From NCBI GenBank assembly GCA_905178155.1, contig CAJINV010000010.1, positions 1,308,451-1,372,450 on the forward strand: a DNA stretch of 64,000 nt, written 5' to 3'. The translations under genes were made by a program, and so were the position numbers. Below the pieces are notes generated by a model, which saw nothing but the letters and a program-made list of their open reading frames with translations, did not search any database and was not told the DNA's origin. Below are positions 3,898-26,354 of this stretch, one piece after another (the stretch's first letter is position 1; every line of letters starts with the position of its first letter). Source of the DNA: Amoebophrya sp. A120. Its lineage: Eukaryota > Protista > Dinoflagellata.

Positions 3898-6800
3898 ATG
3901 GCCTCGACGCAGCAGGCCCGGCGTCTTGTCGCGGGCGACGGCCCGCAGATTGCTTCTTCCAAGCTTTTCCCAAACCCAAAGGAGTTCCAATGCGACCAGA
4001 ACGCGGACTACTTGAAGAAGAGGTTGCAGGTGTGGGAAAAGGTGAAGGCCAAACACGAAAAGGCTGTTGCCGCTATTCCGAAAAAGCAAATCACCATCAC
4101 CCTGCCGGACGGGAAGCAGGTGCAGGGAACGAGCTTCGAAACCACTCCTTTAATGATTGCAGAGGGGATTTCCAAGAAACTAGCCGGGGACATTGTGGTG
4201 GCGAAGGTAGTAGAATTGGATAGTTCGTGCAGCTCTTGTATGGTCTGTGCATGACAATGACCAAGCACAACTCTGTTGCGTACTATTGCGCATGAGAAGG
4301 ATGGTTCGTAGTTGTCAACAAACCTATATTATAAGGTCTACTACACCGAGCCCATCGCCTCTTTAACGCAATGCGTCGCCGCGGATGAAGAGCCGGACTC
4401 CGATGCTGACGGATCTGATGACGAAGACGCGAAGGAGGACAAATTTGTTCTGTGGGACATCAGCCGGCCACTGGAGGGGAATTGTACGCCGGTGGTTCTT
4501 TTTGTGTAGTGGATGACTTCTGCAGCTCTTTGCCATTGGTAGCTTGAGGCGCGACCGCCCGTTGCTGTTCATCATGCTTCTGGAGCATGACAATTTGAAT
4601 TTCAACAATTTGCAGGTGCGGAATGTTCTTTGCCAGCATCACTAAATTTTGTTCTATAGGTACTCTCCACCTTTTGAAATTTGAGGACAAGCTTGCCTCC
4701 AACGTGTTTTGGCATAGTTCCGCTCACGTCTTGGGAGAAGCCATTGAGGTCGAATTTGGGGCGCACTTGACCATCGGGCCACCCTTGGAGCGTGGGTTTT
4801 ACTACGACGGCTTTTTCGGCGAGAAGAAAATCTCCACGACGGAAGACTTGCCGAAATTAGAGAAGCGCTGCCAGGAAATCGTGAAGGAGAGCCAGCCGTT
4901 TGAGCGGGTCGCCTTAAGCAAGGAGGACGCTCTGGAAATGTTCGCGGACAACCCGTTCAAGGTGCAGTTGATCACGAACAAAGTCCCGGATGGATCCATG
5001 ACCAGCTGCTACCGCTGCGGGCCGCTAGTCGATTTGTGCCGCGGGCCGCACTTGCCGTCCACGGGTAGATGCAAGTCCTTCTGGATCCACAAAAACAGCG
5101 CGAGCTACTGGTACTGATAATCTTCTATTTTGCATGCGACTGACGCTGATTTTCTACTGTTCCTGGTAAAAATAGTGATTCCATGATACAATGCCTTGTG
5201 ATTGTGTACGTGTACGACCTGCACTTTCAACACTTGGCGTGAAAGATAAAACCAGAAGCACGATTCACCACTTCCACCTAGGTTGGGGAAAGACAAGAAC
5301 GACTCCCTCCAGCGCATTTACGGTGTTTCTTTCCCCTCCGACAAGGAGTTGAAGCAGCACAAACTGATGCTGGAAGAAGCCGCCAAGCGCGACCACCGAG
5401 AAATCGGGCGGAATATGAACTGCAAAAGTATCGTACTAGTATAATTTGCATCACAAATCTTGGCAAGAAGAAGAGTGGAATTTGTAATGCTGTGTTACCT
5501 TAGAAAGGAGATTTGTAATGCATATTTGCAATTAGTACAAGTGCGATAGGTTTACACAGGATACGGAAGCAGGAGCTCTGGTTTTTCTCCGACTATTCCG
5601 CCGGGTCCTGCTTCTGGATGCCGCACGGCGCCCGGATCTACAACAAGTTGGTGAGCTTCATGCAGCGGGAGTACGCCATTCGCGGGTTTCAGGAGGTGAT
5701 CACACCAAACTTGGTGCACGAGAGTCTCTTCAAGGCTTCGGGGCACTACTACAAGTACAAAGACGACATGTACAGTATGAACATCGAGGGGGAAAGGTGG
5801 TTTTTGAAACCGATGAACTGCCTATGAGAGTGCACAACCCTCCCTCCCCCTCATGTGTATGGCATGAACAGCAATACAAGCAACAGCAGAAAATGGGCTT
5901 TCGCATGACAAATCTGCATGCGGATTGTAGTACTATGTATAGTTTGTCATGCTAACAGCGCGTACGAGCAAGGTGCGAGTTTGGTACTTTGCATTACAAA
6001 TGAGGGGGAGGGGGAGATGTGCACTGTAATACTGCCCCGGCGACTGCGTCATCTTCGGGCATCGCGTGCGGAGCTATCGGGAACTACCCTTGCGGATGGT
6101 TTCCTTTGGCGTGCTGCACAGAAACGAAAACAGTGGGGCGTTGAGTGGTAGATCTAAAATGTGCTGGCTTGAGTATTTTCTCTCTGTCAACATGATAAAC
6201 AGAAAACATCATTTGGAATAGTTGCATAGCATGTCGTATAGAAGTCGCGTGATCATGTTTTGATGCTTCAGCCGAAACTAAATAGCGAGATCCCTGTATA
6301 TACGTTTTAGGTCTGACCCGCGTCCGTCGCTTTCAGCAGGATGACGGGCATATCTTCTGCCGGATGGACCAGGTGAAGAGCGAAATCAAGTACGCGCTCG
6401 CTTTCGTGCGGTTTGTGTACCAGACGATTGGCTTGGAATACACGATGGTGCTCTCTACCCGGCCGAAAAAAGCCATTGGCTCTGAGGAGGTGTGGACGTA
6501 TGCGGAGAAGGAGCTTGCCGAGGCTCTGAACGAGAACGGTGAGCCCTTGGGCTTGAACAAGGGCGACGGGGCGTTTTACGGACCGAAGATCGACTTCAAA
6601 GTAGAAAATGAGAAACCGTGAGTTACAAATTTTCTTACCGTGAATGTTGGTAGATGAAGTACAACACGATCTAATTTAGGCCAGTTTCAAGCTTCAAAGC
6701 CGACAATTCCATAGCAAAGCTACTCAAAAAACAAAAAGTTTAAAACCGCACCAAACAACTTCTTTTCGTCATCTTCAGGCAAAAGACGCCCTGGGTCGGC

Positions 6801-9726
6801 AGCACCAATGCGCGACGATGCAACTGGACTTCCTGTTTCCGATGCGATTCAACCTCCAGTTCCGCACACAGGCGGACGAGCAGAAGGAAGCTGGCGAGCA
6901 GGCGGCTTTGGGTAACAAGGAAGGAGACAAGACAACTGCAGTTCCTCCGAAAGGCAAAAACGCCGCTTCTGGTGCCGCTGTTGCCATAAATGGGAACGCG
7001 GCCGCGCTGGCCTCCGCGGACGGGGACTCGGCGGGAACCAAATCCGCTGTCGACAAGGAGAAGGAAAAAGAGGCGAAATTGGATATAACCCGCTCAGGTG
7101 TTACAATCTCAAACGTTGCAATAGAGTATTGAAATCTGTGATGCAAGATTGCATGATCTAGCCAAGTCTCATAGGCTTGCGCATGACAAGTTCCAGAGCC
7201 CCAAGCCCCACTATAATCTCGCGAGATTTGTATTGCAAAAGGTGGAAAGCTGTGCGAGTCTGTCATGCTCATCATGCAGCACAAATTCCACATTCTATTG
7301 TAACGTTTGAGATTGTAACGGTTGAGCAAGTCATATTGGAAGCGTACGGGTTGGAGGGCGTCTTGAAACCGGGGCACGAGCGACCCGTGGTGATTCACCG
7401 GGCGATATGGATTGCAAAAGTGCCTGGGTCTGGAAGATTGCAACTTGTCATGCTAAATCCGAATCATGCAGAAATCTGTGTTGCATGACCGCCAAAAGCT
7501 GCCCACTTTCGACCATCTTTGGAAGAAGTTTCTCATGCAGGATAGGCATGGCAGAGACCTCACAGACTCTGTCATGCTAGGTCCCGCATTCCAGACCTCA
7601 TGGGTCATGAAAAACCTGCATGACAAGTTTACACTTACTTTTCCAGACCCAGACACTTTTGCATTTGATAGGCGATTATGGGATCGGTGGAGAGGTTCAC
7701 AGGTAGGAAATAGCAAGGATTCGAATTCGTACTAGTCCTAGTCGTGCTGCTTTACGGCCTACATTTATTTTGCATCATAAGATGAAATAGAATGAAGATG
7801 AGCATAATCTTCCGACGAGTTGTACCGCAATTTATAGATGATGCATGTTCATCAGCGCGTTCTTTATTTCTATCGCACACAAACACAAACACAAACTCAT
7901 ATAACTCATAAGTACGTACCAAACATACAGGCATCCTGTGCGAGCACTACGGTGGTAAGTGGCCATTTTTCCTCAGCCCGCGGCAGATCTATCCTGAGTA
8001 AAAACGTACCCACCCCAGAGTTGTCATGCAGATTTGCCATGACAGGAACATTTGTGATGCGCAACCCCATGACAGGCATTTTCAATCGTGTTTGGGAACT
8101 TGTAATGCTGTAAACAGGATCAGGAGGTCGATTTGTGATGCGGCTTTCCTTGCTAACTTGCACTACCTTACGGACTGAGACTTGTCATGCGTGACTCCTA
8201 AAGCTCCTAGGTTTGTGTTGCAAAATCCTCATCCTGACTCTGGTGTGGGTGCGTTTTTACTCAGGATAAGATCATGATCGTCCCCACCCACGCCGGCCTG
8301 AACAAGTACTGCGAGTACGTTATGCATTGCAAAAGTATCGTACTTCCAGTAGGTGTAGGAACACTCGCATTACAAATTTCCCCAAGAACAAAAATGGAAC
8401 TTGTCATGCTAGATCAGCTACAAGATTCGATTTGTCATGCAGGACTGCAATTGCCAAGAATCCGATGTTTTTGCGATGTATATTCATCGCGGAGCAGTAC
8501 CGCAACTTTGGTCTTTTCGCCGACGTCGACACCAGCAGTAAGACCATGAACAAGAAGGTCCGGGAGGCCCAGCTGGCCCAGTACAACTACGTTGCGATCT
8601 GCGGGGAGAAGGAGCAGGAAAACTTGTCAGTTAATTTGCGGGACCGGGACACGGGGAAACCGGTCGGGGAGTTCGGCTTGAATGATTCGGTGGACATGTT
8701 TGTCGCGAAATCCAACCCGAACAGCAAACCAGCGAACCAGTTTGACGCGTTTGAGGGACGCGTGCCGAAGCCGGCTAGTGCGGGAAGTAGTAGTTCTACT
8801 TCATCATCTGGAACAGGAACATCAACTGGAACTGCGACGAACTTCTCTGTGCAGAAGACGGACAACGACAAGAAGACATCTGCTGCCACTGCGGAGACCG
8901 CTGGCGCAACATCCACGACGAGCAACAAGAAGGAAAATCAATCCAGTATCAGAGGCAAAAATCCCCCCTCCCCATATCGAACAGGTATGCTTCCGAAAAT
9001 TTGTGTTGCTGATTTGAGGTCACGAATCTCGTTTGTCTTGCAAGAAGACAAGGGCAGAAGCTTCCGCCTCATTATGGAATTGATTTGTCATGCTGTTGGG
9101 CCTAAAGGCAAAGGGGAGGCGTTTGCCATGCTGAACAACTAGAGGACCCATACGCCCCTACCTAGCCTGGGGATCTGGCCGCAGGAGTGCCTCTGTGCAA
9201 TACAAACCGGATTTGCGTACACAAATCCAGCATCAGAAATTCCGTTTTGATATGGGGAGGGGGGATTTTTCCTTTCGATATCCAGCAAGAAAAACTGGGA
9301 GGCGCACTTCGCGGAGTTCCCGTACGCTGAGGGGTTTGAACTGTCTGAGACCGATAAGATATGCATTGCAAACATGTCTGATGAATCTGGAAGGATGCAA
9401 GGGTTGTCATGCTTGTCTAGCATGACTGAAGAGTTTGTGCTGCGTGTCCAAGAAGAGACCCTTTTGTTTGTCATGCAAAACGCAGTTTGTCACGCGGAAA
9501 GCGCAACACTAAGAAGCGCAAATATTTCTCATGCTTCGCTGTGCAATACAAAGAGTTCACTATTCACAATTCAGCATTACAAGTTTCCTTTTCCAGACCC
9601 AGACATATTTGCATTTGATATAAGAAACTCTTCGACGACTGCAACAAATCCGGGATGCCGAGCTCCGAGAATTTTCAGCGGTGGTTCGAGCATGTGGGGA
9701 GCTTGGTGCGGGCGGGACGCTGCTGA
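3898..9726 (+). CDS. TARS: Threonyl-tRNA synthetase, eukaryotic cytosolic type, copy 1
   Basis: TGS domain (ITITLPDGK), editing domain ([17 protein letters not shown]), core motifs [48 protein letters not shown], and anticodon domain ([13 protein letters not shown]). GT-AG introns: 4207-4335, 4484-4659, 5111-5281, 6148-6310, 6601-6778, 7703-7930. Also 8 introners. TGA at 9724-9726. Confidence 0.95.
5414..5563. mobile_element. Introner family B (150 bp)
   Basis: TSD CGGAA; TATGAACTGCAAAAGTATCG...CAGGATA; absent from ThrRS copy 2. Confidence 0.9.
5823..6031. mobile_element. Introner family D (209 bp)
   Basis: TSD CTGCC inside the KPMNCP motif; TIR with AGTGCAC and CTCCCCCTC. Confidence 0.9.
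7084..7335. mobile_element. Introner related to family F (252 bp)
   Basis: TSD TTGGA; ~40-bp imperfect TIR containing GTTACAATCTCAAACGTT. Confidence 0.88.
7406..7670. mobile_element. Introner family A (265 bp)
   Basis: TSD GGCGA inside IHRAI; same TIRs as the element at 869. Confidence 0.9.
7990..8268. mobile_element. Introner family C (279 bp)
   Basis: TSD AGATC; TIR TATCCTGAGTAAAAACG...CGTTTTTACTCAGGATA. Confidence 0.9.
8321..8482. mobile_element. Introner family B (162 bp) with decayed right TSD
   Basis: Left TACGT, right TTCAT; TATGCATTGCAAAAGTATCG start; paralog reads EYVAEQ without interruption. Confidence 0.85.
8947..9280. mobile_element. Introner, singleton (334 bp)
   Basis: TSD TCCAG; TIR AAAAATCCCCCCTCCCCATATC / GATATGGGGAGGGGGGATTTTT. 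Confidence 0.88.
9360..9620. mobile_element. Introner family A, subfamily A2 (261 bp)
   Basis: TSD TAAGA; close sister of the element at 20743. Confidence 0.9.
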
Positions 9727-10978
9727 AACGGAAATGGCAATATGCTGTCTTCTTGGTACAACAACGTCAACAGCTTCGGGTCCTTTGCCTTTCAGATACG
9801 GCAAGGAAAATTTTTACAGCAACTGAAAAACTATGTTAAAAACGAGGGCGCCATGTGGTTGATAGATGAAATGACAGATACGGTTACGGAGAACAACCTT
9901 ACCTAATCATGCAACTTCTGAGGGAGGTGTTGTAGTTGTAGAGCCCCCTTAAAGAAACAGATAGAATGAAATGGTTTTTGACATTCGATGAAAATGAAAA
10001 TTTGTATTCGACCATCTCGTTCTTGAGAGGTTTCCGATGAATGTAAAAGGTAGACTTTCGGTCTTTTTGGTGAATGATATTGATTTTGCTTTGCGGGTTG
10101 CTGACGTGACAGACGCAGCGAAGATCCGAGAAGAATATACTTAGCTTAGTAGAAGTGGCGGATAACTGTAAATACGCAAAATTTCGAATAGAGCAACGAG
10201 CTCCGCATCACATGATAGAGTGGTTTTGTATAAAGTTGATGTCGGACGAAAGTAGTTAGGAAAAAAAAGAATTGAATAAATTTGGTTGACCACACGAGGA
10301 TTTTCCACGAAATGGTTTCGAACGATGATCATGATATCAATGGGAAGAATTAAGTCTCGAGCAAGACAGGCAATTGAAGAGAAACATTTATAGCTGTCCC
10401 GAGAAACAGAAACATGACGAAGCTGTCAGCAAAAATCAAATCAGCCGGTGGCATGCGCTGCTGGTGTTGTTGTTCAGCCACATGTGTATCACTACGAAGG
10501 ATCATCCCGAACAAACTTTTTTACAAGGAAAGATCATCATGTTGATCATCAGATCAGCTTGCATTGTTTCTACTTTTTGCCCGGACAATACATGTAGCGA
10601 ATTTAATCGCATCCAGTAGAAGATCTATTACCATCGCAAGATCGCAATCACTTTATCAAAGCAAGAAATTATTCCTACGTACATGAACATGGAACGCACG
10701 GTAAGAATTGTTCTTTGCGTTCTAAAATCTTCAGGCACTCCGGATTTGCGAAAAGTTAGATTTTTGACCTTTTATTTCGTACCCATAGTACGTTCGACGC
10801 ATTAGCATTACCCATACATTACACTTGCATCCACCCTAAACTTGTGCGTTTGATGTCCTAACAAGAAAATTTCTCAGAAACACCCCACGACATTCACATT
10901 CACCACCAAAGAACCTAAAAGATTCACATTTTCCACCGTCAAAGGCGTTTTTACGTCGCCACCGCACTACAACAAGCC

Positions 10979-13900
10979 ATGGCCACGACGCAGCAAGCCC
11001 GGCGTCTAGTCGCCGGCGACGGGCCGCAGATTGCTTCTTCCAAGCTTTTCCCGGATCCGAAAGAATTCAAATGCGGACAGAATGCGGAATACTTGAAGAA
11101 AAGATTACAGGTGTGGGAGAAGGTGAAGGCAAAACACGAGCAAGCGATCGCGAAAATCCCAAAGAAGGAGATCACGATCACACTGCCGGATGGCAAGCTG
11201 GTAAAGGGGACGAGCTTTGAAACCACGCCAGAATCGATTGCTGTTGGGATATCGAAGAAGCTGGCAGAAAAAATCGTCGTGGCTAAGGTACTGAGTGTTC
11301 GCGAGTAGAATCATGATCTTCACTTTGCTTTATGCAGAAGTGTGCCCGTGATGTGGTCTTCCTTTCAATCGGCGTCTACTACCGAAGAAAGCACGCGTTT
11401 TCATTTTCCGCATGACAAGCTAAATCACATTACAAAATCAGGTCTATTACTCCGAGACCATTGCGTCACTGTCTCAAGTAGTAAACGCCGATGAGGAGCC
11501 AGAGTCTGACGAGGATGGGTCAGATGACGAGGATATCCTGAGTAAAAACGTACCCACACCATAGTTGTCATGCAACTCTGCATGCTTAAAATGTTTCTCA
11601 TGCGGAGCCCCATGAGAAGCATTTTCTAATGCGGTTTTGAAATTTGTCATGCTCCAATCAGCACGAGATACTAGATCTGTAATGCTGCTAAACTAGCTTA
11701 AACAGCACTACACTACGCGGAGAAACTTGTCATGCCAAACAACCAAAGCTGGCTGATTTGTCTAGCAGATTCCCCATCTTGACTCTGGTGTGGGTACGTT
11801 TTTACTCAGGATAGAGGAAGACGCTAAGGACGAGAAATTTGTCCTCTGGGACATCTCGAGACCACTGGAAGGAAACTGTATTCTTGCAGCACTTCTTGTT
11901 TTTCAATTCTAACTCGCGTTGATCACTAAGCTCGGGGGCGTACTCCGCGTTGATCACTAAGCTCGGGGGCGTACTTATTTCCGGCAAGCTTTAATGCATT
12001 TCGCAAAGAAGCGAGCCGCCGGGCATTCAAGCCTGGGGCCTAATTTTTCTGTCCGACTTCCACGATCCTCAAGAGGCGACGGGGATAGTGGTTGTTTTCG
12101 TCGGGGGCTAAGGATTCTCTCCAGCTCTTAGGAAGTATCTTTTGAACGCCAAGCGTGAGGGTGGTAGCGCGAAGCGAACCCCAATTGAACTTCCCTTCAC
12201 TGCTAAAACGGGTGGTGTTGCGTCGTTCGAGATGCCTGGCTCTCAATGCAATCCAGAGCAGATGATTAGCCTTCAGAAAATTTAAGCGGTTATTAGTGCA
12301 GTTTCTGGCTCACCTAGGTAGCTCCTACAGTACCGAAGAAGCTTGTGCTGAATTGTTTTTCAATTCTGCACACCTTGGCTGCGTGACAGAGTTTTTTTTT
12401 GACGTGCATGCATTGCTTCTGGTTCTTTGCACTTCAACAAGCTGCTCTACTTTCTCGAGGCGCCTGTTTGCAGTGCTTTTCTGTAGTAGGTACAACCAGA
12501 TGAATTCATTTGTATTGCAAGACGACCATGAAGATCATGATCAACCGGCACGGAAATCATATCAGGCACCCTCCACCTCCTGACGTTCGACGATAAGCTT
12601 GCGTCCGACGTTTTCTGGCACAGCTCCGCTCACGTGCTGGGGCAGTCGATCGAAGTGGAGTTCGGAGCGCACTTAACCATCGGGCCCTCGTTGGAGAAAG
12701 GGTTCTACTACGACGGTTTTTTCGGAGACAAGAAAATTTCCACGACGGACGACCTGCCGAAATTAGAGAAGCGTTGCCAGGAAATCGTGAAGGAAAACCA
12801 GCCGTTTGAGCGGGTTACTCTGACCAAAGAAGACGCGCTCGAAATGTTCGCGGATAACCCCTTCAAAGTGCAGCTGATCACGAACAAAGTGCCGGACGGA
12901 TCCATGACCAGCTGCTACCGCTGCGGGCCATTAGTCGACTTGTGCCGCGGACCGCACCTGCCGTCCACGGGAAAATGCAAGTCCTTCTGGATCCACAAGA
13001 ACAGCGCAAGTTACTGGTATCATCTTTATATATCACGATGGTGTATGTTGTAGGTTTTTCTTGCAGCGAGTTTGAGACTTGCATGAAACTCAAGATGAAC
13101 ATGAAAGACGAATAAGTTGTTTTACCATCGTACCATCGGCTTCATCGTGTCACATAGGTGTGACGTCAATTATACCGATCTTTGTCAACAACAGTCCTCT
13201 GCGTCTGCGCCATGGCATGCGAGATGCCTATTTGCGTGGCACCGCACGCCTTTTCGCCACCGCACGCCCACGCCCACCCCTGCCGCCCCAGCTGCGCATA
13301 GCATGCTCGTCGCTCCGCTTTACGCCGCGCCGCGCTGTCTAAAACCAAAACCGCAACGCTGCGGTAGCAATATGTGCTTCCCAAAACGAACAAAATGCAA
13401 ACTCTAGGGAAGGAACTACAGCAACAAAACGAAAAGCATCATCTTGTTCCTCCCGATCATCCAAAACAAAAGTAGGCAAGAACCGCCCGAATGATCAAAC
13501 TAACGAACTACACAACTTCACCACAACAGGCTGGGTAAGGATAAGAACGATTCCCTCCAGCGCATCTACGGTGTCTCCTACCCCTCCGACAAGGAACTGA
13601 AACAGCACAAGACACAGCTCGAGGAAGCGGCTAAACGCGACCACCGGGAGATCGGGAAAAAGCAGGAGCTCTACTTCTTCTCCGACTTCTCCGCCGGCTC
13701 CTGCTTCTGGATGCCCCACGGCGCCAGGATTTACAACAAGTTGGTGGAATTCATGCGCCGGGAGTACGCGATTCGCGGGTTTCAGGAGGTGATCACGCCA
13801 AATCTGTACCACGAGTCTTTGTTTAAAGCGTCCTATGCATTGCAAAAGCATCGTACTAGTATAAATCGCAATACAAATTTTCTCAGAAGGAGAAATGGAG

Positions 13901-16381
13901 TTTGTAATGCTGATTTGGCTAAGAAACAAGATTTGTCATGCATGATTGCAATTAGTACTAGTGCGATACTTTTGCAGAGCATACGTCCGGACACTACTAC
14001 AAGTACAAAGACGACATGTACAACATGGACATTGTATCAAACAAAAAAGTGTTAACGTTAACGGTTTTCATAGATTGCAAATATGCATGACACATTTTGC
14101 CTAGCATGCGTGCTATGCATGACAAATTTGGGCGCGTTTTGTGATGCGTTACTGCATCACAAATTCCGTTGACGTTAACGCTTTTTCCTGTGATACCTTG
14201 AGGGGGAAAGATGGTTTCTGAAGCCCATGAACTGCCCAGGGCATTGCGTGGTTTTCGCGCACCGCGTGAGGAGTTACCGGGAGTTGCCGCTCCGGATGGC
14301 GTCCTTCGGAGTCTTGCACAGAAACGAGAACAGCGGGGCGTTGAGTGGTATACTTTTGTAGCCAGGGTTTTTTTTCTTTGACGCGAAGGAATGTGTAGTC
14401 AAATCAAAGTCGTGCACACTGTGCTGCGGTCCAGGAGGGGCTTGTTGAATGCTTGTATTGCGATGCTTTCTCTACTAAGTACGGGAGTACGAAATCCGTC
14501 TCAACATACAACTCGCACACCCAACCAATTACCAGGTCTGACCCGTGTCCGGCGGTTCCAGCAGGACGATGGCCATATCTTCTGCCGCATGGACCAGGTG
14601 AAATCCGAAATCAAAAACGCCTTGAAATTCGTGCAGTTCATCTACGAGACCATCGGTTTGGAGTACACCATGGTCCTTTCCACCCGCCCAAAGAAGGCAA
14701 TCGGCAGCAAGGAAGTGTGGGCCAACGCGGAGAAGCAATTAGCAGAGGCTTTGAACGAAAGCGGACTCCCGTGGGGGCTGAACAAGGGAGATGGGGCATT
14801 TTACGGACCGAAAATCGATTTCAAGGTATGTCGAGTTTTATTGGGATAGATTTTCAGATCCTTTTCGTTACATCACACAACATCTCGTAGTTGCTAAAGT
14901 TACAAGTTAGTATGCTTGTCGTTGTCACGCCGCATGTTGACACCAAAATCGGATTCTCATGATAGTGGCGTCAGGCTCACAAAGAAGATCAATCAATACT
15001 AGCGTCAAATATCATGCTTGTGTACATTCGATTGTGAACTCCCATTACCCCAGGTTAAAGACGCGATCGGGCGTCAGCACCAGTGTGCGACGATGCAATT
15101 GGATTTCCTTTTCCCGATGCGTTTCAACCTGCAGTTCCGCACGCAGGCGGACGAGCAGAAAGAAGCCGAGGCTGCCAAGGCCGAAGGAGAACAAGCACAG
15201 GCAGCAGGAGCTGCTCCGAAGGAAACCAAGGAGAACAAGAAAGACAAAAAAGCCGCTGCTGCTGCCGCTGAGCCGAAGGAACCGCGAGCGTCTGCTACGT
15301 CTGCAGATGGCGGTGCACCAGCGGCGGATGCTGGAAAATCTGCTGCCGACAAGGAGAAGGAAAAGGAACAGAGAATGGAAGCGGTTGGGTTGGAAGGTGT
15401 GCTGAAACCCGGTCACGAGCGGCCGGTCATGATCCACCGTGCCATTCTAGGATCCGTGGAGAGGTTCACAGGTACTGACGTGTAAGGGAGTCATGTAAGT
15501 TAAGATCTAGTGAGGTTTTTTCTTTGATGATGCAATAAACAATGTTGCGCTTCATCTACAACTGAATTGAAAGTGCAAGTGCTGTCTGCATGAAATCCAC
15601 ATCCAAATCAGGTATCCTGTGTGAGCACTACGGCGGCAAGTGGCCGTTCTTCATCTCCCCGAGACAGGTGATGATCGTCCCGACGCACGCTGGTTTGAAT
15701 AAGTACTGCGAGTACGTCGCCGAGCAGTACAAAAACTTCGGCATCTTCGCTGACGTCGACACCAGCAGCAAGACCATGAACAAGAAGGTCCGGGAAGCGC
15801 AGCTGGCCCAGTACAACTACGTTGCGATCTGCGGGGAGAAGGAACAGTCGGCGTTGGCGGTCAACTTGCGGGATCGCGACACGGGCAAGCCGCTCGGGGA
15901 GTTCTCGATTAAAGATTCCGTGGAGATGTTCGTCGCGAAATCCAACCCGAACAGCAAACCTGCGAACCAATTTGACGAATTTGAGGGCCAGAAGCCGGAG
16001 CCAATCGGCGCCGGGAAAAATGGTGCGTCTTCAAGCAGCTCCGCAGCTTCTTCTGCATCAAAACCAGAAAAGTTATCCGCGGAAACAGCAGGTGCGTCGA
16101 GCAAAAACGACTCTACTACTTCGAAGGAGACCACTGCAGCTGCTGGAGGTGCGAAGAACAAGAAGCAGGAACATCAGAATAATGGTGAGAACAACAAGAA
16201 CGGGGCAATAAAGAAGGATTGGGAGTCGCACTTCGCACAGTTTCCGTACGCTGGCGGATTTGAGATGTCCGCGACAGACAAGAAATTGTTCGAGGAGTGT
16301 AAGGGCGGCATGCCGAGTTCGGAGAATTTTCAGCGGTGGTTCCAACACGTAGGAAGCTTGGTAAGAAGTGGGATTGTGTAG
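10979..16381 (+). CDS. TARS: Threonyl-tRNA synthetase, copy 2 (tandem paralog)
   Basis: Same motifs as copy 1, with KPMNCPGHC intact. GT-AG introns at the same codon positions: 11288-11441, 11878-12565, 13017-13529, 14348-14535, 14826-15053, 15472-15611. Three introners. Confidence 0.95.
11534..11813. mobile_element. Introner family C (280 bp)
   Basis: TSD GAGGA; near-perfect TIR TATCCTGAGTAAAAACGTACCCACACC. Confidence 0.9.
11911..12352 (-). mobile_element. Probable 5'-truncated non-LTR retroelement fragment inside a GT-AG intron
   Basis: Exact 15-bp direct repeat TTGTTTTTCAATTCT at 11896-11910 and 12353-12367; ~31-bp tandem repeat at the left end; the equivalent intron in copy 1 is only 176 bp. 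Confidence 0.55.
13834..13983. mobile_element. Introner family B (150 bp)
   Basis: TSD CGTCC inside FKASGH. Confidence 0.9.
14035..14195. mobile_element. Introner, singleton (161 bp)
   Basis: TSD CATTG/CCTTG; TIR with GTTAACGTTAACGG / CCGTTGACGTTAAC. Confidence 0.85.
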
Positions 16382-17089
16382 CTGATGTGGAGAACCGTTG
16401 TCAACAAATGGAGTTGTAGATCTTTGGAGGAGGAACAGTAGTGTAATGCAGCTCTTCTTGTCACACAGAAGTTGAAAATCAAAAAGAACGCTACCTTTAT
16501 CGATGAATAAAGCGCTCGCTTACTCTTATTTCACCAGTCTCTAATTATAGAGGAATATCGCTTACTCACGCTCATATTTCTGATTGTATCTATTGCTTTC
16601 TGCTGGTTCTGGTAGCGAGACGCAAGTCGCAGGATCACGTGTGATTTTTGCGGAAGTAGAGCCTTTCTGGTCACGTTAACACAATAAGCGGTGAAGTGAA
16701 AGAGACGACGCAAACTTTGAATGACTTTGAATCGATATCAGCGACAATGCCACTTCATGTTTCACTTCAAACTGAGGAGAAAGTAGGCTGCGTCATTCAA
16801 AGAGAACGAGAGCCTTTTGGTAGCACAAACGATGATCAGACTTTACGTCGAGACGCGCGGCCAATCTTAAGAAAAAAGATGATAAAAAAGTAGAATGAAA
16901 TTAAAGCGTAAGTGCGAGAGCTTCACCTTCATGCTCGAAGACGAGCTGCGCGAAGAGACTATTGCTGACACTGATCATGGAGTGTGTTCCCCTGGTCTAC
17001 TACATTGGATTTTGCTTTTGTTGTGTCTGTCTTTGTTCTGGAAACAGCAGCAAAACTCTGCGCATCACCAAGCCTACCAGTCCGTAGGC

Positions 17090-18420
17090 GCCAAGGGAGG
17101 AGCTAGCTGCGGGATAGGCTGCGGGCCAGCGCGCTAAGCGGCCGAAAGTTCGGCGGGGTTCTGGGTGGGCGCCTTTCGTGTAGCAAAATAAACGGGGGGG
17201 GCGGCGGTCGCGCAGGCCGGGCAGTGCGTGCGTCGTGGCGCTGGTGTGGCGCCTCGACCCCCGGGGGCTGGTTCGCGCGATCACCGGGAGACGCACGCGC
17301 CCGCCTGCGCTTGTTATTGTTGCCCCGCCGGCGGCGTTGTGCCATGGACCCGGGCGGGCGGGCAGGCGGCAGCCTGGAAAGAGGGCCCGAGCCCTTTGCC
17401 AGAGCCCGAGCCAGGCCATGTGGGCCACGTATGCACCGGGCGCCACGGTAAAGGCGCGCCATGGATGACCCAAGGCCGGACGGGGCCCAAACACTGCCCC
17501 ACCCCCCGCCCTCAGGGCATCCCTGGGCGCACCGGCCTCCGCGCCGAGCCTGGCTGGTGGCGGACGCCGCCGGGCCGCCCTTCTTTGCCAAAGTGCAGGC
17601 CCTGGCTCGTTGTGCAGCGGCGGCGCCGCGTGCGCCCGCGCTAGGCTGCGCCCGCCCCGGGGAGAATCGCCCGAAGGGCCTTCGCGCGGGGCCGGGGGGA
17701 GCATGGCGCGGGCGGCGGGCGAATGGGCGGGGGGCCCGTGGAAGGATGCCTCTTGCGTCCAGCCCCTTCGTCGATGAGGCTCGCCCCGCCGGGAAGCCGT
17801 CGGCCCGCGCAGTGCCCCGCCCCAATACATAGCTAGATGCTCACTGGCGGGGCCGGGCCGCCCCGCGCCTTGCAGGCCGGCGCGGCCGCCGCTTGGCCCC
17901 CCTGCCGACAGGCCGAAGGCCCGCCCGGGCCGCGGTCGCCCAATCGCTTCCCGCCGCCGCCGCGGGGCGGTGGCTTTCGTGGTGTCTTCGGTCGGATGGG
18001 CCGGGCCGGCACCGCGGCCGTAGCGCTGCCGGGGCGCCCGCGTCGCTGCCCAGGTGCCCAGGATCTCCCTTGCCTCGCCCCTGCCCCGGGCCGGCTTGGG
18101 GGCTGGCAGGCAGAGGAGGGAGACTGACCCACCCGGCCGGGTTCCTCGGTTTGATTGGTGGGTGGGCCAGTGCCTATTGTTCTATTTGGCGCGTCGCGAA
18201 GCGCGTGTGGCTGGTGCCATCCGTGTGCGTTGTTAGTTGCAGCGGCCCTACTCGCGTTGACGCTCGCAATGGGTAGCCCCTTGCCGCCGGGCAGGCTCTT
18301 GCAATATTATATTTAGAGAAGGAACTCCAACTCGCCTGCCAGGATGGCCTCGGTGGTCGATGGTAGGTGGCGGCCGCGTAGTGGCTCATTGGGCGACCCG
18401 CCCGAGGTGTTCACCCCGTC
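17090..18420. other. GC-rich non-coding intergenic island
   Basis: GC content jump; no recognisable protein; boundaries approximate. Confidence 0.55.
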
Positions 18421-19632
18421 CGTGATACCGAACCTCGATGCCCGTTCTGTTTGCGAAGCTTTCTTTGTAGTTTTGTTTCGCAATTCTTTCTCTTGGTTTT
18501 GGCGTTGCGTCATCCATGGTTTTGTATCTGTGGAATGCCCGACCTCGACATGGTCTTCCCCGGGATCTCTAAATCGGCGCTATGGCGTATTAATTTTAGC
18601 CGGCAAATGATAGCCAGGCCCCGCGATTTCAATTGTATAGCAAGAACTGTCCTCGCACTAAGGACACGCAGCTCCTTGTGTTGTAGATTGAGAGATGAAA
18701 GCGGCACTTAAAAAACTCAAATTCTTCTTCTGGCAAATAGAGCGTTCTTGCGTACTAACAAAGATTACCTATCCCAAAGGTGAAGATGAAGGTCGAGTTG
18801 ATGTGCTACAGCGACGGCTATCCTTGAAAGTAGAAAATCGGAGCAAATCGAACTCTCCAGCGACTTCCAGCGTGAGGTTGAGAACTCAGTAAGTGAGAAG
18901 TTTGTCATAGAGCACATTTTGATCCATATCCAGCTCTCAGGCCAAGTTGCTGGATTGTTGCGTAACTACACCTAAACTTCTATTGGACGACGAGTCTCCT
19001 TATGTCTCTGGACGATTGATGCGAGCGTGACGAGTGAAGAGACCACAACACACAAGATGGCCAATTTTTTCAGATGACAGTGGTGCCCGAGCAGGAGTCT
19101 GCGTCCGAGACCCGAAAAAAAGTGCTTTGCAGCTAGTAGCACTGGTCCTCGTGGTGCCAGAAGTACCAAGAGTAATTATAACACGCTGACCTACAATAAC
19201 CTCGAAGAACATCAAGCAGTAGACAACTCGAGAAGGACTACCACACTTTCTCGCACTTGACGACGAGGAAAGCAAACGCAACCGCAACCGGCACAGATTC
19301 ACACTCAGGGCTGTCCCAATAAAACAAACTACAAACCACGCACTTGTTGCGTCGAGCGGACGAGTTCGCGGCAGACAGAGGCTCGTTTGCGTTTCCTGCT
19401 CTGTCTCAACTACATCTCCTGGTCCTCCCGAACCGTCGTTACTGACACAGCAAACGACCCTTGCTTGTTTTGTCACGACGACATTGGGATCTTGTCTTCA
19501 ATACGGCGGATTCAAAAGAGCACCTCCTCCTTCCCGACAACACAACAAAAGCGTTAGCTTCACATTGTCAGTAGAACACCAGACCCAGCAGAGGGACAAG
19601 CACCCAGGAGTAACAAAAACCAGCCCTCCCAA

Positions 19633-22600
19633 ATGGACGCTGCCACCACGACCCTCACCCCCGATCAGGAGGAGCAGCTCACCCTGTTCCGGGAGGTGAC
19701 GGCGAACGAGGACCGACAGCGATGTATCCAGTACCTGGAGATGAGCAACTGGAATGTGGAACAGGCCATCAACTTGTCCATGACCGGCGCATTAGACAAC
19801 ACACCAGCAACAGGCTCCGACCACGCGGCCGCCATGAACTTCATAACCGGCGACCACGAACCGGCAATAGGACCACAACAGCAGACCAGGCCGAGTGGGG
19901 GGGTAGAGCAGAGCTTCTTTTTGTTGAGGATGATAGATGCATGATTACTTGTCTTCTAGTTGGAGATCGTTGGATGGGACATACTACCTGTCTTGCGCGA
20001 TCAACATCGGGTCGTGCAGCTGTTCTATAACCCGCCGTGCGGTGCTTCAAAGTAAGTAAATGTAAATCGACACTACAAGAGACAACAATACAATATGCTC
20101 AGTACAAAGAAACAACTCAAACCAGGACCCCGACGCATCCCTCGCCCAAAAAGTGGTCGAGAAGGTCGGCAACGTATCCTGTGCAAAAGTATCGTACTCG
20201 TATTGCAATCATGCATTACAAACTTTTTTCTCAAGGGAAAACAGCATTACAAATTTTATTTCTCATGCTGAGGGAATTTGTCATGCATTTATACGAATAC
20301 GATACTTTTGCAGTTCATACAACGCCGCCAGCAAGGTACTCAACGGCATCGGCGGGTTTCTGCACTCCATGTTGATCCCGGACGAAGTATGAACTGCAAA
20401 AATGTCTGGGTCTGGAACATTCTAAACTTGTGATGCTGTCTCTGGATTCTGAAAAAATTTGTATTGCATGACCAGCAAGAGGGCTCCAGTTTGTGCTACG
20501 CAGAGCGGTCATTTTTCATGCTGTAGAGGCATCACAAAGCGCTCTAAAAATCTGTGATGCTACGGCATGCATCACAGACATCATGAGCCATGGAAAATAT
20601 GCATGACAAATCTAGAAATCTTCCAGGCCCAGACACTTTTGCATTTGATACGATGACGGGTATAACAACAACACCTCCGGCGGAAGTAGTTCCAGCAGCA
20701 GCAGTGGTAGAGCGAACCGGAACAGTTTCAAAGCGTACTACGTATCAAATGCAAATGTGTCTGGGCCTGGCAGATTGTTTGTCATGCTTGTCTGGCATGA
20801 CTGAACAGTTTGTGATGCGTGTCAAAGAAGAGACCCGCCTTGTACAACTTGTCATGCAACAACGCAGTTTGTGTTTGTCATGCGGAAAGCGCAACACTAA
20901 GCAGCGCAGATATTTCTCATGCTTGGCTGTGCATTACAGAGCATCCACTATTCCCAACCCAGCATTACAAGTTTCCAGAACCAGACATATTTGCAATGCA
21001 TACTACGAGCGACAATACAAGACGGACGCTTCGACCGCCTGCCCGGACTTTTTCGACGGAACGTTTCAGCAGGCAATAACGAAAGCGAAGGACAACATGA
21101 AACTCCTTATGGTCTACTTCCACTGCGAAACCGCAAGTTTGACCGACGACTTTTGCAAAAACTGTCTCAACAACGACATCGTGACAGTGATGTTGAGTGA
21201 CACGTGCGTCAGCTTCGGGGCCGACATAAACGACCGGACCAGTTACGACTTGGCAAGGCAGTTTCAGGTATTTGTTTTGTTCTTGTGGACGCGGACGTCG
21301 TCGTGTTTGGCTGCATGACAAAAATGCCAGAATTGACGACCGCCTGCAAAACGAGTCGTGATACATCATGAACGTGAAGGAAAGTAAACAGATTTTTACA
21401 AGCTACACGACTCATGTGCACCATGAATCACACAAACAAACTTCATGACTTTTCAGGTTCAACGCTACCCGTACCTGGCGCTGGTGCTTCCCGTCTCCGC
21501 AACGGACTACAGGATACTTCACAAAGTCGACGGGCAGGTATGAAAATGAAGTTATTTGTGACGTTGCATGACAAAGTGAAGACACAGAAGTGGCGACGAT
21601 AGATTTGCCATGCTATGCTGAAAGAAGAAGTAGATGCAGTGCTGCTCATACGACTTTGATTATTTTGTGATGCAAATCATGTATCCAAACAGCAAGCCGG
21701 ATCAGTTGACGGCCTCGTCGCGCTTTTGACCCAAGCCGCCGACGACCTGGAGCAAAATCGTATCAAGTGTAAAAGTGTCTAGGTCTGGAAGAATGCATGC
21801 TTGTCTGGCATGCTTGTCTGGCATGACTCGAGAATCTGTGTTGCATAGGCACGAAAAAACCCTCTGGCCTGTCATGCAAAAGCGCAGTTTGCCATGCGGA
21901 ATACGTAAGACATGGCAGCCAAAAAAATTGTCATGCATGTTATCATGTCGTACTGCAGTGCGTCTATCATTATTTTTAGCATATACAATTTTCCAGGCCC
22001 AGACATATTAGCAATCCATAAACCGGGCCCAGCTAGTAACGCAAGCGAACCAAGTTCAGCACGACAGGCTTCTGCGCGCCGAGCAAGACAGGGAGTATGA
22101 AGAGGCTTTGGCGAAGGTACAGTGTGGCTGGTTTGTCATGCAGACTGTCAATGCATATACAACAGCGTTGTCCTCCTGCTCCTCACGAGTGCGCAACACA
22201 AGTTTTTTTCTGAAAAGAATCTTCCTTGATAAATTTCATATCACCTCCTCCACAGGACCGCGAAGCCGAGGCCGCACGGCAGCGGGAGGAGGAGGCCCGA
22301 CAGAAGGCGCTGGAAGAGGAAAAACAGGCCCAGCTCGCCAGGGAGCAAGCGGCGAAAGACATCGAGGCGAAAAGGAGAAAACTGGCGACCGAACTTGTCA
22401 CTGTGGACCCAAGCACGACGGAAGCCAAGACGAAGATACAAGTGAAATTCCCGACGGGGCAGAGGGTATCTTTACTTTACTAAAACTAGGAATGAATTTG
22501 TTTCTATTTTCACCACTTGGGTCAACGTCGTCATGCGGTACCAGCATGCTAGGCGAAGTGGAAAGAAATCAGGCTTTGTCTGTTGCAACATGACAAATTG

Positions 22601-22916
22601 CATTCCGTTGTTTTCGTTGCATGACAAACTTCTGAAACTCGGTAGCAATGTCTGATGCATCATCCACAATGCAAATTGCTATCAGGTCAACCGTACGTTC
22701 CTCCAGTCCCACACACTGAAGGACCTCTTCAACTGGGTCGAGGCGGCAGAGTACGCCGAAACGGGGACAAGTATCAAAGTCCCGAGCAAGTTCTCCCTCA
22801 ATACGTCCTTCCCCACGAAGTTGCTTCAGCGCAGCGACGAAAGCCTGAAGGACGCCGGGCTGGTGCCCAACGCGCAGGTTTTGCTACAGGATCTGTCCAG
22901 CGACGACGAAGAGTAA
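19633..22916 (+). CDS. UBX-domain p97/Cdc48 adaptor, FAF1/FAF2-like (UBA-UAS-coiled coil-UBX)
   Basis: UBA-like N-terminus (LEMSNWNVEQAI), UAS domain (PDFFDGTFQQA...KLLMVYFH), LRAEQDREYEEAL, UBX domain (IQVKFPTGQRVNRTF...TSFPT...SLKDAGL). GT-AG introns: 19903-20125, 21268-21456, 21538-21692, 22117-22255, 22466-22685. Four introners. Confidence 0.88.
20175..20319. mobile_element. Introner family B, reverse orientation (145 bp)
   Basis: TSD CAACG; TATCCTGTGCAAAAGTATCG...TTTTGCAGTTCATA. Confidence 0.9.
20388..20650. mobile_element. Introner family A (263 bp)
   Basis: TSD CGAAG/CGATG; family A TIR core. Confidence 0.88.
20743..21002. mobile_element. Introner family A2 (260 bp)
   Basis: TSD CTACG; sister of 9360. 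Confidence 0.9.
21761..22020. mobile_element. Introner family A2 (260 bp)
   Basis: TSD AATCG/AACCG; TATCAAGTGT...GCAATCCATA. Confidence 0.85.
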
Positions 22917-23569
22917 CAAGTTCTTGAGCGGGGAGGAGGAGGTGGTGTTCATAATCGCGGCAAACTACCCGGCGGCTGGGATAGAGCGCACGGTGGTGAT
23001 GGTGCTCCTGTGGGATCATGTTGAGTAGAGGAGCCCCCGGGGGTCATTTTCCGTGGTAGAAGTGCTACGCCTACTGAAAGCCGAGGCTAGTGGAAGGGGG
23101 CTGTTTATTGCTCCATCTTGCGGTAGGGGAGAGTCCCTGATCGTTTTTTGTGACAAGGAGCTGAAGAAGTAGAATGATGAGTGATCGAGAAGGGACTGGT
23201 GGATCGATGATTAGCGATCAACGCGACTGATCATGAAAACTCTACCTAGTGGCATCGTGCTCAGCAGGCGAAGAATAGTCAGTGCAAGCTTCTACGATAG
23301 TCGTGAATGTTGGTAGAACTGCGATTGCGGCTTGATGCTGTGTGTAGGAGCTCGAATCAACCACGACGGTCCGGACGCTACATTGAATCACTTCTACAGC
23401 CACTCAAAGGCGATAGTTTTTTCGTTGTGCTACACGTACAAGGGAGAGCTAAAGCAACAAGAACACGCTGTAGAAACGCAAATCGCTATGGCTGACTTGG
23501 AAGCCTGTGCCATCGAAGCCGTTGCTGTGGTCGTCTGATGTTCTGCCACTTACCTTGCTGGCGCTTTAC

Positions 23570-25000
23570 CATCTGATGCGCAGTGCGAGCTACTCCTACC
23601 ATCATCCGACGTCTCAGGGAGTAGGCCAGGGCGACACGTTCCGCCCGCGCCCGCAAGTGCAGCAGGGCGCGCGGCCTTCGGGCATCATGGGCCGACCGGA
23701 TCCAAGACCCGCCTACAGAGCGCGGCGGCAGTCCAGGCCGGGGCAAAAAGAGCGGGGGCGCCGTTCGCCATGTCGCGGGGCGCAAGCTAGTAGCCATGGC
23801 CAAGCGCTGTGGCCGCCTCGCCCAGCTGCTGAAGCTGGTGGCGATCCCCTTGGCCCGCGTGCTACACTTGCATCAGGCGGCCCGGCCGCATTCGCGCCCA
23901 AGGCCCTTCGCGTTTCCCCTCGGCCCGACTTAGCCGCCGACAGGAATCCGCGACGCGGGGTCCGGGGGCCGGCCTGCGGGTGCTTTGGCGCGCGCTTGGC
24001 TTTTTTTTGGCCGGCGTGCGTGGCGGATGGCGCGCGCCCCCAGTGCAGGCGGCGAAAGTGTCCTTCGAGGCGGGGGAGAAAGCCATGGCGATGAACGTAA
24101 GGCGGGCCCCTTTATTGGGCGGCGCCGGTCGTGTCGTTTCTCCCTCCGGCCGGCGCGCGGGCTTGGGCCTTTGGAGGTGGCGCGGAAAGGAGCGGCCGGG
24201 GCCCCGGGGCAGTGGCGGCGAAGGCAGGGGGGAACCCCTATCCAGCTGACGAGTGCCGCCCTGGGTCGGGGGCAGTTGGCCGCGTCTGAGAAGAGTGACG
24301 GGCCGCCGCCCGCCTTGCCCATGCCGCCCCCCGGCCAACCGATCAAGATCTACTGCAACCACGCGGCGCCCGCCTTGCTTTCTGCCCGCCCGGCATTCTA
24401 AGCAACGCATGGCCGGCCCGCCGGCCCCTCGCTCGCTCTGGGTCGGCCGGCGCGGCTTGCGCTGCCTGCCTGTTTGGGTTTTGCCAATTGCCACCAAGGC
24501 CGGGGCCGCGCTTCGCTTCGGAGTCCGTGAATCCGCTCCCCTTGGGGCATTTCGCGGGCCCTGCTTGCCCGCCCGCCGTGGTTGCAGCTTCTGGGGGCGT
24601 TGATTGTGGCGTTGGGTTTTCTGTGCTGCCGCCGGCTAGCCCCGCCCTTTGGCACGGACGGCGGCGCGCCGGTGCGCCTTGCCCACCATTTGCATGCGCA
24701 GGCCGCGGGCGCCGGCTTTGTTGGCAAGCGTTGGGCGGCGCAGCTCCTCGGCCCGAATGTTGGCGCCGCCCGCCCCCCGGTTTCGCTGCTCTCGCAATGC
24801 CTATGGCCGCACTCTTCCTTCGTTCCACCCTGCTTGCCGCGGCACCAGATAGAACCGCAGCGGGGGGGGGGGGGGCGAGCTACGGAAGCCGGCACGCCGG
24901 CAGGGCCGGAGTTCGCTTGCCCCTAGCGCGCAGCGCTAGCCCGAGCAAGGGGCTTAAAAGAATATACAAGAAAGCGCGTGCACGACGCGAGTGGTGGCGG
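23570..25000. other. GC-rich non-coding intergenic island
   Basis: GC content jump; no recognisable protein; boundaries approximate. Confidence 0.55.
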
Positions 25001-25346
25001 TGTTCCTTTGCGTTGGGCATTTCAGGCCATGACGCAGGGAGTGTGAGTGTGTCTGTTCTTCTCCGATATAAACCATCCAGAGCTCATCTCTGCCTTTCGT
25101 CACAATATTTGCACAGCGTTTTTTGCGTTTGCGTCGTGTCGCCAGCTTTTTCTTCTTGGTTGTCGGTCCTTGCTGTGAGGTTCAGTTTTTTTCTCATGCT
25201 GATGCTGACGCAGCTCCAACTCCCTGTCCTGCCTGTGTATCTACCGCGACCGAGTGAAGCAAGCTAGCAATTAGATAGGAAATCAGAGCTGTTTAGTTCG
25301 CAAGCGAGGCACAACCGTAATAACCTAACAAGCACCCCTCTCCAAA

Positions 25347-26354
25347 ATGGGCAAGAAGCGCATGAAAACCCTCTCCGACCTCAAGGTCGCCATTATCGGA
25401 GATGAACAAACCGTGACCGGGTTGTACGAGAAAGAAAACTTCTTGAGTTCCGGCCGCAAAGTTTGTATCTCTATTGCATAAGCATGACACGCGTTTGTTG
25501 AAGATGATTTAGAGTTGCACCTGCAGAAAAAAGGCATTCCTGAACAAGAACAATTTGTGTGTAGTAGTCCGAGGACTCAAGACTTCGCTTCCATATTCTA
25601 GTCTTGGGCGGTGGTGGCATGGTCGATGGGCAGGGGAAGAAGAATTTCATGGTCGTCGACGGCGCAACGCGGAATCACGAGGTATAATAGAGACAATGTT
25701 TTAATACGACGATACCAAGTACGACTAAACTTGTGATGCAGCACAATCTGAATGACATAGTCATAGAATCGATGCGGATGCCACTTCATTTTCATTCGAA
25801 ACAAAAACCTCAGATCGCCGAGCAGTTTCAGGAGTGGACGACGCGGAAGGATCTCGCCGTGATCCTGATCTCCCAGACGGAGGCGGGAAAGATCCGAAAC
25901 GTCGTCGACGATTTTGCCCGCAGCGGGCAGGTGATCCCCGCGGTGCTGGAGATGCCGACCAAGGACGTCGCTTACGACCCAAAGAAGGACTATGGAAGCG
26001 TCAGGTTTGAAATCGTCAAAGTTAAAATAGTTTGGCACGCATAAAATCGATACCGGTTGGAAGCCCAATTTCCAAGCGGCGCATGACAAATTTTCGGAGT
26101 ACCGGAATCCAATTTGTCATGCTGTTTGGGCACAGAAGACTGCTTTTGTCATGCTTGTTCAGAAGCTCTATCCCAAACCCTAAATAGGCTCACAATCTGC
26201 CTCGCTTGCCTTCCCGGCAAGACAGGCACTTCATGCCTTGCATTTTATGCATGACAAATCATTACAACTTTGACGATTTCAATCCTGACAGATCCATAAG
26301 GACCCGATCATGCAGCGCGTGCAGATGTTCTTCGGAAGCAACCCGGTCATGTGA
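25347..26354 (+). CDS. ATP6V1F: V-type H+-ATPase subunit F
   Basis: MGKKRMKTLSDLKVAIIGDEQTVTGLVLGGGG...KNFMVVD...RKDLAVILISQ...IPAVLEMPTKDVAYDPKKDPIMQRV. Removed segments: 25425-25600 (non-canonical), 25682-25813 (GT-AG), 25991-26303. Confidence 0.92.
25425..25595. mobile_element. Degenerate (old) introner
   Basis: TAC...ATA ends; residual inverted repeat TCTTGAGT/ACTCAAGA; TSD lost (GGTTG vs TTCTA); the adjacent GT...AG join gives the wrong frame. Confidence 0.65.
25991..26298. mobile_element. Introner family G (308 bp)
   Basis: TSD AGGAC; TIR GTCAGGTTTGAAATCGTCAAAGTT / AACTTTGACGATTTCAATCCTGAC. Confidence 0.9.

Follow-up and report, generated by a model that had tools for sequence, protein, structure and literature searches.

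The DNA considered here is a stretch of 64,000 nucleotides (nt) of the nuclear genome of Amoebophrya sp. A120, a parasitic dinoflagellate; it is called the window below, and all positions are given in its coordinates. It carries introner elements resembling transposable elements of the miniature inverted-repeat type (MITEs), which lie in genes as non-canonical introns and are absent from transcripts. Both the elements and their non-canonical removal have already been published for the A120 genome, and they are not a new system. On balance, the cuts that remove them are probably made at fixed distances from the paired ends of each element. In the V-ATPase subunit F gene, an element with diverged flanking repeats is very probably removed at the level of RNA. 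What is lost is the element together with 5 nt, and identity of the flanking repeats and an AG at the acceptor are both dispensable. The junction at this element is the single one that can be followed base by base, and it suggests that the downstream cut likely falls 4, not 5, bases past the end of the element. The system is known, and the result is a modest, testable refinement of it.

Among eleven sequencing runs, two kinds bear on the question. Run X1 is DNA-like: it contains 0.86 of the sampled words, and its long contigs pass through introns and spacers with no differences. Runs X3, X4, X5 and X6 are RNA-like: they come from one sample, contain 0.46 of the words and give contigs without introns, and it is from this absence of introns that their RNA nature is inferred. 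Alignment of the X3-X6 contigs to positions 25300-34499 at 98% likeness gave six joints, one at a GT-AG intron and five at elements. Two raw RNA runs, X9 and X10, yielded 4 and 40 matched reads, all of them partial and mostly on repeats. The joints of the V-ATPase F gene involve the following features.

V-ATPase subunit F gene, + strand: PF01990 on exon 25814-25990; host of the elements at 25425 and 25991.
25425-25595, + strand: decayed introner element TAC...ATA of the V-ATPase F gene; left flank 25420-25424 GGTTG, right flank 25596-25600 TTCTA.
25682-25813: GT-AG intron, absent from the RNA-like contigs.
25991-26298, + strand: introner element of the V-ATPase F gene with flanks AGGAC/AGGAC; joint 25984->26298 with a slack of 6 nt in four of four runs.

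The flanks of the element at 25425 match at 1 of 5 positions, and the joint across it, 25422->25599, has a slack of 1 nt (25422/25423 to 25599/25600) in X3, X4, X5 and X6 at a depth of 21-472. All four runs skip 176 nt, which is the 171 nt of the element plus 5. The mRNA reads GGGTTAGTC at the joint, where the upstream flank copy supplies GGT(T) and the downstream copy (T)A. The cuts lie 3-4 nt past the terminal ATA on the 3' side and 1-2 nt before the element on the 5' side, and the ends of the intron are TG..TC or GT..CT, neither of which is GT-AG. The AG at 25600-25601 is left unused as an acceptor in the RNA, and its use would shift the reading frame. The DNA-like X1 contig that covers 24862-26014 is unspliced, contains the element and does not differ from the window. 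The ends of this copy do not fold into a significant hairpin (z = +0.67), and still the copy is missing from the transcripts.

At elements with identical flanks (25991, 30070, 31960 and 34186) the slack of the joints is 5-7 nt. The element at 34186 is missing in the RNA-like contigs of two runs, and those at 30070 and 31960 in the contigs of one run each. Ends of the form CT..AC, seen at 30070 and 34186 with the cut at +3, were considered as GT-AG introns of the minus strand and rejected; they are chance products of the flanks in a + strand gene. It was also considered whether the cut at 25425 is measured from the inner helix. The arms of this copy differ by 2 nt, and by an informal reading the cuts fit the termini of the element instead.

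An earlier note on this DNA, made from the sequence alone, had proposed that the left flank copy is kept and that the 3' junction lies about 5 nt past ATA, and had cited the V-ATPase F gene as agreeing. At the protein level the gene does agree; the RNA joint 25422->25599 departs from the proposal. The check that the note itself had named beforehand, junction sequences at a site with mismatched flanks, gives at 25425 one or two right-copy bases retained in the mRNA, and the distance past ATA is 3-4 nt in this RNA, with 4 as the value shared with the other informative sites. Retention of the left copy thus stands as a bias at 8321, 14035 and 20388 and fails for the copy as a whole, since 25425 takes its last one or two bases from the right. 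Several other parts of the proposal are borne out. The direct repeat is dispensable: with flanks that agree at 1 of 5 positions, the element plus 5 nt is still removed exactly. Nor is an AG read as the acceptor, to judge by the unused AG at 25600-25601 and by the element introns of the threonyl-tRNA synthetase genes described below. Measurement of the cut from the ends of the element is supported as well, with a register that was off by one at the sole readable site.

Three further elements are informative through the proteins annotated for their genes. Exon 12568-13014 is 100% identical to the Amoebophrya sp. A120 protein P0002 (961 amino acids, aa) and 91% identical to P0003 (943 aa), and P0123 is likewise a protein named Amoebophrya sp. 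A120. P0003 and P0002, both from one contig of 3.95 Mb, belong in this order to two threonyl-tRNA synthetase (ThrRS) paralogues, T1 and T2, which are arranged in tandem and contain both elements of the earlier note, at 8321 and 14035.

3898-9723, + strand: T1, ThrRS paralogue, protein P0003 of 943 aa; the exon chain translates exactly to P0003.
10979-16378, + strand: T2, ThrRS paralogue, protein P0002 of 961 aa; the exon chain translates exactly.
UBX/UBA gene, + strand: protein P0123; the exon chain translates exactly; host of the element 20388-20650.
8321-8482, + strand: introner element TAT...ATA of T1 with decayed flanks; left 8316-8320 TACGT, right 8483-8487 TTCAT.
14035-14195, + strand: introner element of T2 whose flanks differ at one position; left 14030-14034 CATTG, right 14196-14200 CCTTG.
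20388-20650, + strand: introner element of the UBX/UBA gene (P0123); flanks CGAAG/CGATG, mismatched at position 4.

T1 has 14 introns, of which 6 are GT-AG introns and 8 are introner elements; T2 has 9, with 6 GT-AG introns and 3 elements, and one RNA-like contig is spliced as modelled for it. For the 11 element introns in this pair of genes, no register yields GT-AG ends. According to Farhat et al. (PMC7789003), the gene models behind the annotated proteins were built from BLAT transcript alignments accepted at an identity of at least 90%. The annotated proteins are indirect evidence of the RNA, and weaker evidence where a single base differs.

The flanks at 8321 agree at 3 of 5 positions, the mismatches being at positions 2 and 4. 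At the homologous site T2 reads TACGTC and has no insertion, and the annotated T1 protein reads CEYVAEQ across the junction. Three junctions fit P0003, namely (8319|8487), (8320|8488) and (8321|8489), which correspond to registers 4, 5 and 6, where the register is the number of bases past ATA at which the downstream cut falls. In 101 other ThrRS of at least 600 aa, the homologous column holds V in 84 sequences and I in 8. The terminal hairpin of this element has z = -3.1. At 14035, where the flanks differ at position 2, T1 has ATC (Ile) at the homologous site and the annotated T2 protein reads MDIEGE. Here the junctions from (14031|14198) through (14034|14201) fit P0002, giving registers 2-5. 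The homologue column in the same 101 sequences holds V in 64 and I in 31, and L is outside the six commonest residues. The flank strings and the paralogue readings that the earlier note gave for these two sites (TACGT/TTCAT, CATTG/CCTTG, TACGTC and Ile) are correct. Because the proteins, the paralogue and the homologues agree at 8321 and 14035, the bases of the upstream copy appear to be the ones expressed at flank positions 2 and 4. At 20388 the annotated protein reads PDEDG, and it is fitted by (20386|20655) and (20387|20656), that is, by registers 4 or 5.

The allowed registers are therefore 4, 5 and 6 at 8321, 4 and 5 at 20388, 2-5 at 14035, and 3 and 4 at 25425. If a single rule governs all four informative sites, it should be register 4, which puts the cuts 4 nt beyond ATA and 1 nt ahead of TAT, because this is the only value common to them.

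A possible mechanism can be put forward on this basis. Every element would share one register. Base 4 of the target duplication would be the last base of the upstream exon, and the intron would consist of flank base 5, the element TAT...ATA, and bases 1-4 of the downstream copy. The terminal helix formed by TAT and ATA would act as a ruler that brings the two cut sites together, as in the spacer code of Euglena, whereas the flanking repeat and GT/AG would play no part in setting the cuts. In its widest form the proposal is that such a ruler, blind to other sequence, removes tens of thousands of introns by reading the paired TAT/ATA ends and cutting 1 nt upstream and 4 nt downstream, with a logic like that of Euglena that arose independently. 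This wider form is tentative, and more doubtful than the fixed distances themselves. At register 4 the intron at 25425 starts with GTAC and every element intron with N-TAT (N-UAU), and the GT-AG introns of the window start with G-TA(C/G/T). This likeness gives no more than a hint that the same reader may recognize the 5' site at element introns and at GT-AG introns.

Several observations weigh against a single register of 4. The sole site resolved in RNA is the decayed copy at 25425, which starts with TAC, has an insertion or deletion in its arms and forms no significant hairpin, and which is perhaps not typical. Annotated proteins set the lower bounds at 8321, 20388 and 14035, and an aligner could misplace a single-base difference between flanks such as those at 20388 and 14035; 8321, with two differences, is safer in this respect. 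The register may be 3 at 25425 and 4-5 elsewhere, in which case it varies. A G-to-A RNA edit or a polymorphism at 25424 may be present and would rescue register 5; the DNA-like contig has G at this position. The four RNA-like runs represent one sample, recognized as RNA by its contigs. Finally, the informative genes are all on the + strand, where a "left copy" is indistinguishable from the 5' copy in the transcript.

In a rival reading there is no fixed register at all. The element plus 5 nt would then always be removed, and the pair of cuts would slide among six registers, for example with local pairing. The site at 25425 permits register 3, whereas 8321 and 20388 require at least 4; in Farhat et al. 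(PMC7789003) the called splice sites are 1-5 nt away from the inverted repeats, and the position of the border is given as unknown; and the acceptor spacer of Euglena tolerates one additional nucleotide, according to Nomura et al. (PMC12501133). Against this, register 4 alone satisfies four of the four informative sites, and the published spread of 1-5 nt is what an aligner would yield where repeats are identical, and so is no evidence of real variation. A sliding register is rather unlikely.

It is still less probable that the whole upstream copy is kept, so that the intron would be the element with the downstream copy, cut 5 nt past ATA on the 3' side and directly before TAT on the 5' side. 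Register 5 is permitted at 8321, 20388 and 14035, and the left-copy bases at positions 2 and 4 are favoured by the paralogue and the homologues. The RNA at 25425, however, reads the A of the right copy in four of four runs where the left copy has G, and the DNA-like contig is the same as the window throughout 24862-26014.

Removal from the DNA, by ciliate-like excision or by recombination between the flanking repeats that would leave some nuclei with a joined gene, is hardly credible: although the terminal inverted repeats (TIRs) and target duplications have the anatomy of a cut-and-paste DNA transposon, and although the DNA-like joints over 6500-26499 are dominated by repeat joints among which a rare joined form could escape, the elements are still in place in DNA-like contigs (X1, 24862-26014), GT-AG introns are missing from the very RNA-like contigs that lack the elements, removal proceeds with flanks matching at 1 of 5 positions, and precise excision by a transposase would leave two flank copies, not one. 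The earlier note had also argued against recombination between the repeats, and the unspliced DNA-like contig, together with RNA-like contigs that lack the element and the GT-AG introns alike, speaks for the same view.

Scans for inverted ends and similarity searches over the 64,000 nt of the window found 31 TIR elements of 145-497 nt. The 5' end is TAT in 29 of 31 and TAC in 2, and the 3' end is ATA in 30 of 31 and ATG in 1. The motif TAT-N6-8-AAA is present at 21 of the 31 5' ends and at 20 of the 31 3' ends, the remainder belonging to other families that begin with TAT. Of 30 minimum-energy folds, 24 have the TAT of one end paired with the ATA of the other. The 5-nt flanks are identical at 22 of 31 elements, match at 4 of 5 positions in 6, at 3 of 5 in 1 and at 1 of 5 in 2. 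Mismatched flanks thus number 9 of 31, close to the "about 10 of 33" given earlier. The 22 identical pairs cannot be due to chance, because each would have a probability of about 1/1024. With TIRs, a 5-bp target duplication, multiple copies and empty sites, the anatomy of a TIR DNA transposon of the MITE type is present. Five elements are absent from the RNA-like contigs and 15 more from three annotated proteins, and 20 of the 31 elements are covered in this way.

Among the 22 elements with identical flanks, a small sample, flank positions 4 and 5 seldom have T (1/22 each), and 16 of 22 have a purine at position 5. This bias could reflect the targets that the transposase prefers, or a constraint on the first base of the exon as in Euglena.

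The remaining element sites with mismatched flanks say less about the register. One of them lies in an open reading frame (ORF) for which the mismatch is synonymous.

31752-31903, + strand: introner element in a + strand ORF; flanks TCCGT/TCCGC, mismatched at position 5.

This mismatch (CGT/CGC) would separate register 4 from register 5 by itself. Among the RNA-like runs over 25300-34499 there are no contigs that bridge 31752, 28469 or 29383. The flank differences at 21761, 28469 and 31752 are all synonymous, so that proteins cannot tell the registers apart at these sites.

A few elements or groups of elements are irregular. The element at 386-594 has perfect CAGGA flanks and ends in ATG in place of ATA. 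In the interval 28469-29637 three or more elements (28469-28736, 28801-29106 and 29383-29637 among them) form a nest with the long outer inverted repeats I2 and I7, and its cover by RNA-like sequence is patchy. The interval 50583-51079 contains two different element halves, whose outer flanks (CAATC/TTCCC) are unrelated to each other. An in-frame micro-exon of 39 nt would be left by internal termini near 50751 and 50796, and the interval is either one composite intron or two introns. For the gene at 48-52 kb, which holds the sites 49039 and 50583, no annotated protein was found at E <= 1e-20 among proteins of 264-2000 aa.

The ThrRS pair allows the insertions to be ordered in time. All 6 of the GT-AG intron positions are common to T1 and T2, and none of the 11 element positions is; at the homologous empty sites the paralogue carries the target in its unduplicated form. 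Since no element position is shared and the paralogue retains the unduplicated target, the introner insertions are younger than the ThrRS duplication. As judged from these sequence comparisons, all the insertions in T1 and T2 postdate the duplication of the gene and so are dated relative to it. Further elements of the two genes are listed here.

8947-9280, + strand: introner element of T1, flanks TCCAG/TCCAG.
9360-9620, + strand: introner element of T1, flanks TAAGA/TAAGA.
11534-11813, + strand: introner element of T2, flanks GAGGA/GAGGA; TIRs complementary at 20 of 20 positions.
13834-13983, + strand: introner element of T2, flanks CGTCC/CGTCC.

Other repeated features were seen in the window. 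The 9-mer TTGTNATGC or its complement GCATNACAA occurs 94 times, and the 31 elements, about 11% of the window, contain 78 of these occurrences. Sixteen are outside, 9 of them in GT-AG introns of four modelled genes; examples of the 9-mer are at 4249, 4585, 11410, 21313, 21566, 21665, 22133, 22619 and 25731. The 9-mer may be an intron-associated signal, or it may be a sign that GT-AG introns descend from old elements. The region 43013-43514 is densely occupied by inverted repeats of 70-108 nt that are 70-78% complementary (I1, I3-I6, I8 and I14) and are unlike the TAT...ATA elements. A near-perfect palindrome at 38591-38669 has two arms of 37 nt, 92% complementary and 5 nt apart (I19).

Diverged flanking repeats turn the question of where the intron border lies into a simple count on existing RNA-seq data. 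The answer obtained here, 4 + 1 as opposed to the 5 + 0 of the earlier note, comes from one site read in RNA. If the register is indeed fixed, it would provide a model usable by gene finders for more than 60% of Amoebophrya introns, it would show whether the apparent "RNA editing" at 2-4% near intron borders is partly a matter of misplaced junctions, and it would place Amoebophrya beside Euglena as a second case of splicing measured by a helix. If the ruler is real, splicing measured on a hairpin would be a recurrent second splicing code of eukaryotes, here fitted to the 5-bp stagger of a transposase.

The system to be compared first is the one described in the A120 genome itself. Farhat et al. 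2021 (BMC Biol 19:1; PMC7789003) reported the introner elements of Amoebophrya sp. A120, in which more than 60% of introns are non-canonical. As given there, 29,850 repeated A120 introns carry inverted repeats made of TAT, about 7 variable nt and then at least 3 A, with direct repeats of 3-5 nt, hairpins, no GT-AG, removal supported by RNA-seq and a proliferation specific to the strain. The U1 small nuclear RNA was not detected in that study, and apparent "RNA editing" was noted near intron borders at 2-4%. By the same account, the position of the intron border "remains unknown", and "1-5 nucleotides" separate the called splice sites from the inverted repeats. Compared with this description, the elements of the window are the same elements in the same organism, and nothing in them differs in kind. 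What is added to the published account comes from the mismatched flanks, which limit the register to 3-4 at one site in RNA, and to 4 if there is a single rule. A later paper that fixes the A120 border did not come up in a literature search to which most papers in subscription journals were out of reach.

The introners of Micromonas and Aureococcus, as described in PMC7789003 and PMC11282704, belong to the non-autonomous TIR elements; they have target duplications and turn into introns when they insert. They are described as having canonical splice motifs, supplied partly by the element or by the duplication, whereas the 11 element introns of the ThrRS genes have no GT-AG register.

The closest counterpart in logic is found in the nonconventional introns of Euglena. 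Nomura et al. 2025 (PMC12501133) defined by knock-in mutagenesis the pattern N3-CAG...CTG-N5-6 followed by a purine (R); they report that changes of 1 nt in the 3-nt donor spacer abolish splicing, and that the acceptor spacer is 5-6 nt long. The use of introns that lack repeats to fix ambiguous borders goes back to Milanowski et al. 2014 (PMC3935182), a precedent for the reasoning from mismatched flanks applied here. Circular excision products have been reported for nonconventional introns of Euglena (PMC11282704). An assignment of the window elements to the nonconventional introns of euglenids or hemistasiid diplonemids was considered and dropped, the genes being those of Amoebophrya sp. A120. 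The sequences also differ. In Euglena CAG at +4..+6 pairs with CTG at -8..-6, and the two spacers measure 3 and 5-6 nt; the paired ends of the window elements are TAT and ATA, with probable spacers of 1 and 4 nt. The resemblance to the published Euglena pattern is thus one of mechanistic principle, an analogy and not membership, between an alveolate and a euglenozoan lineage that are unrelated.

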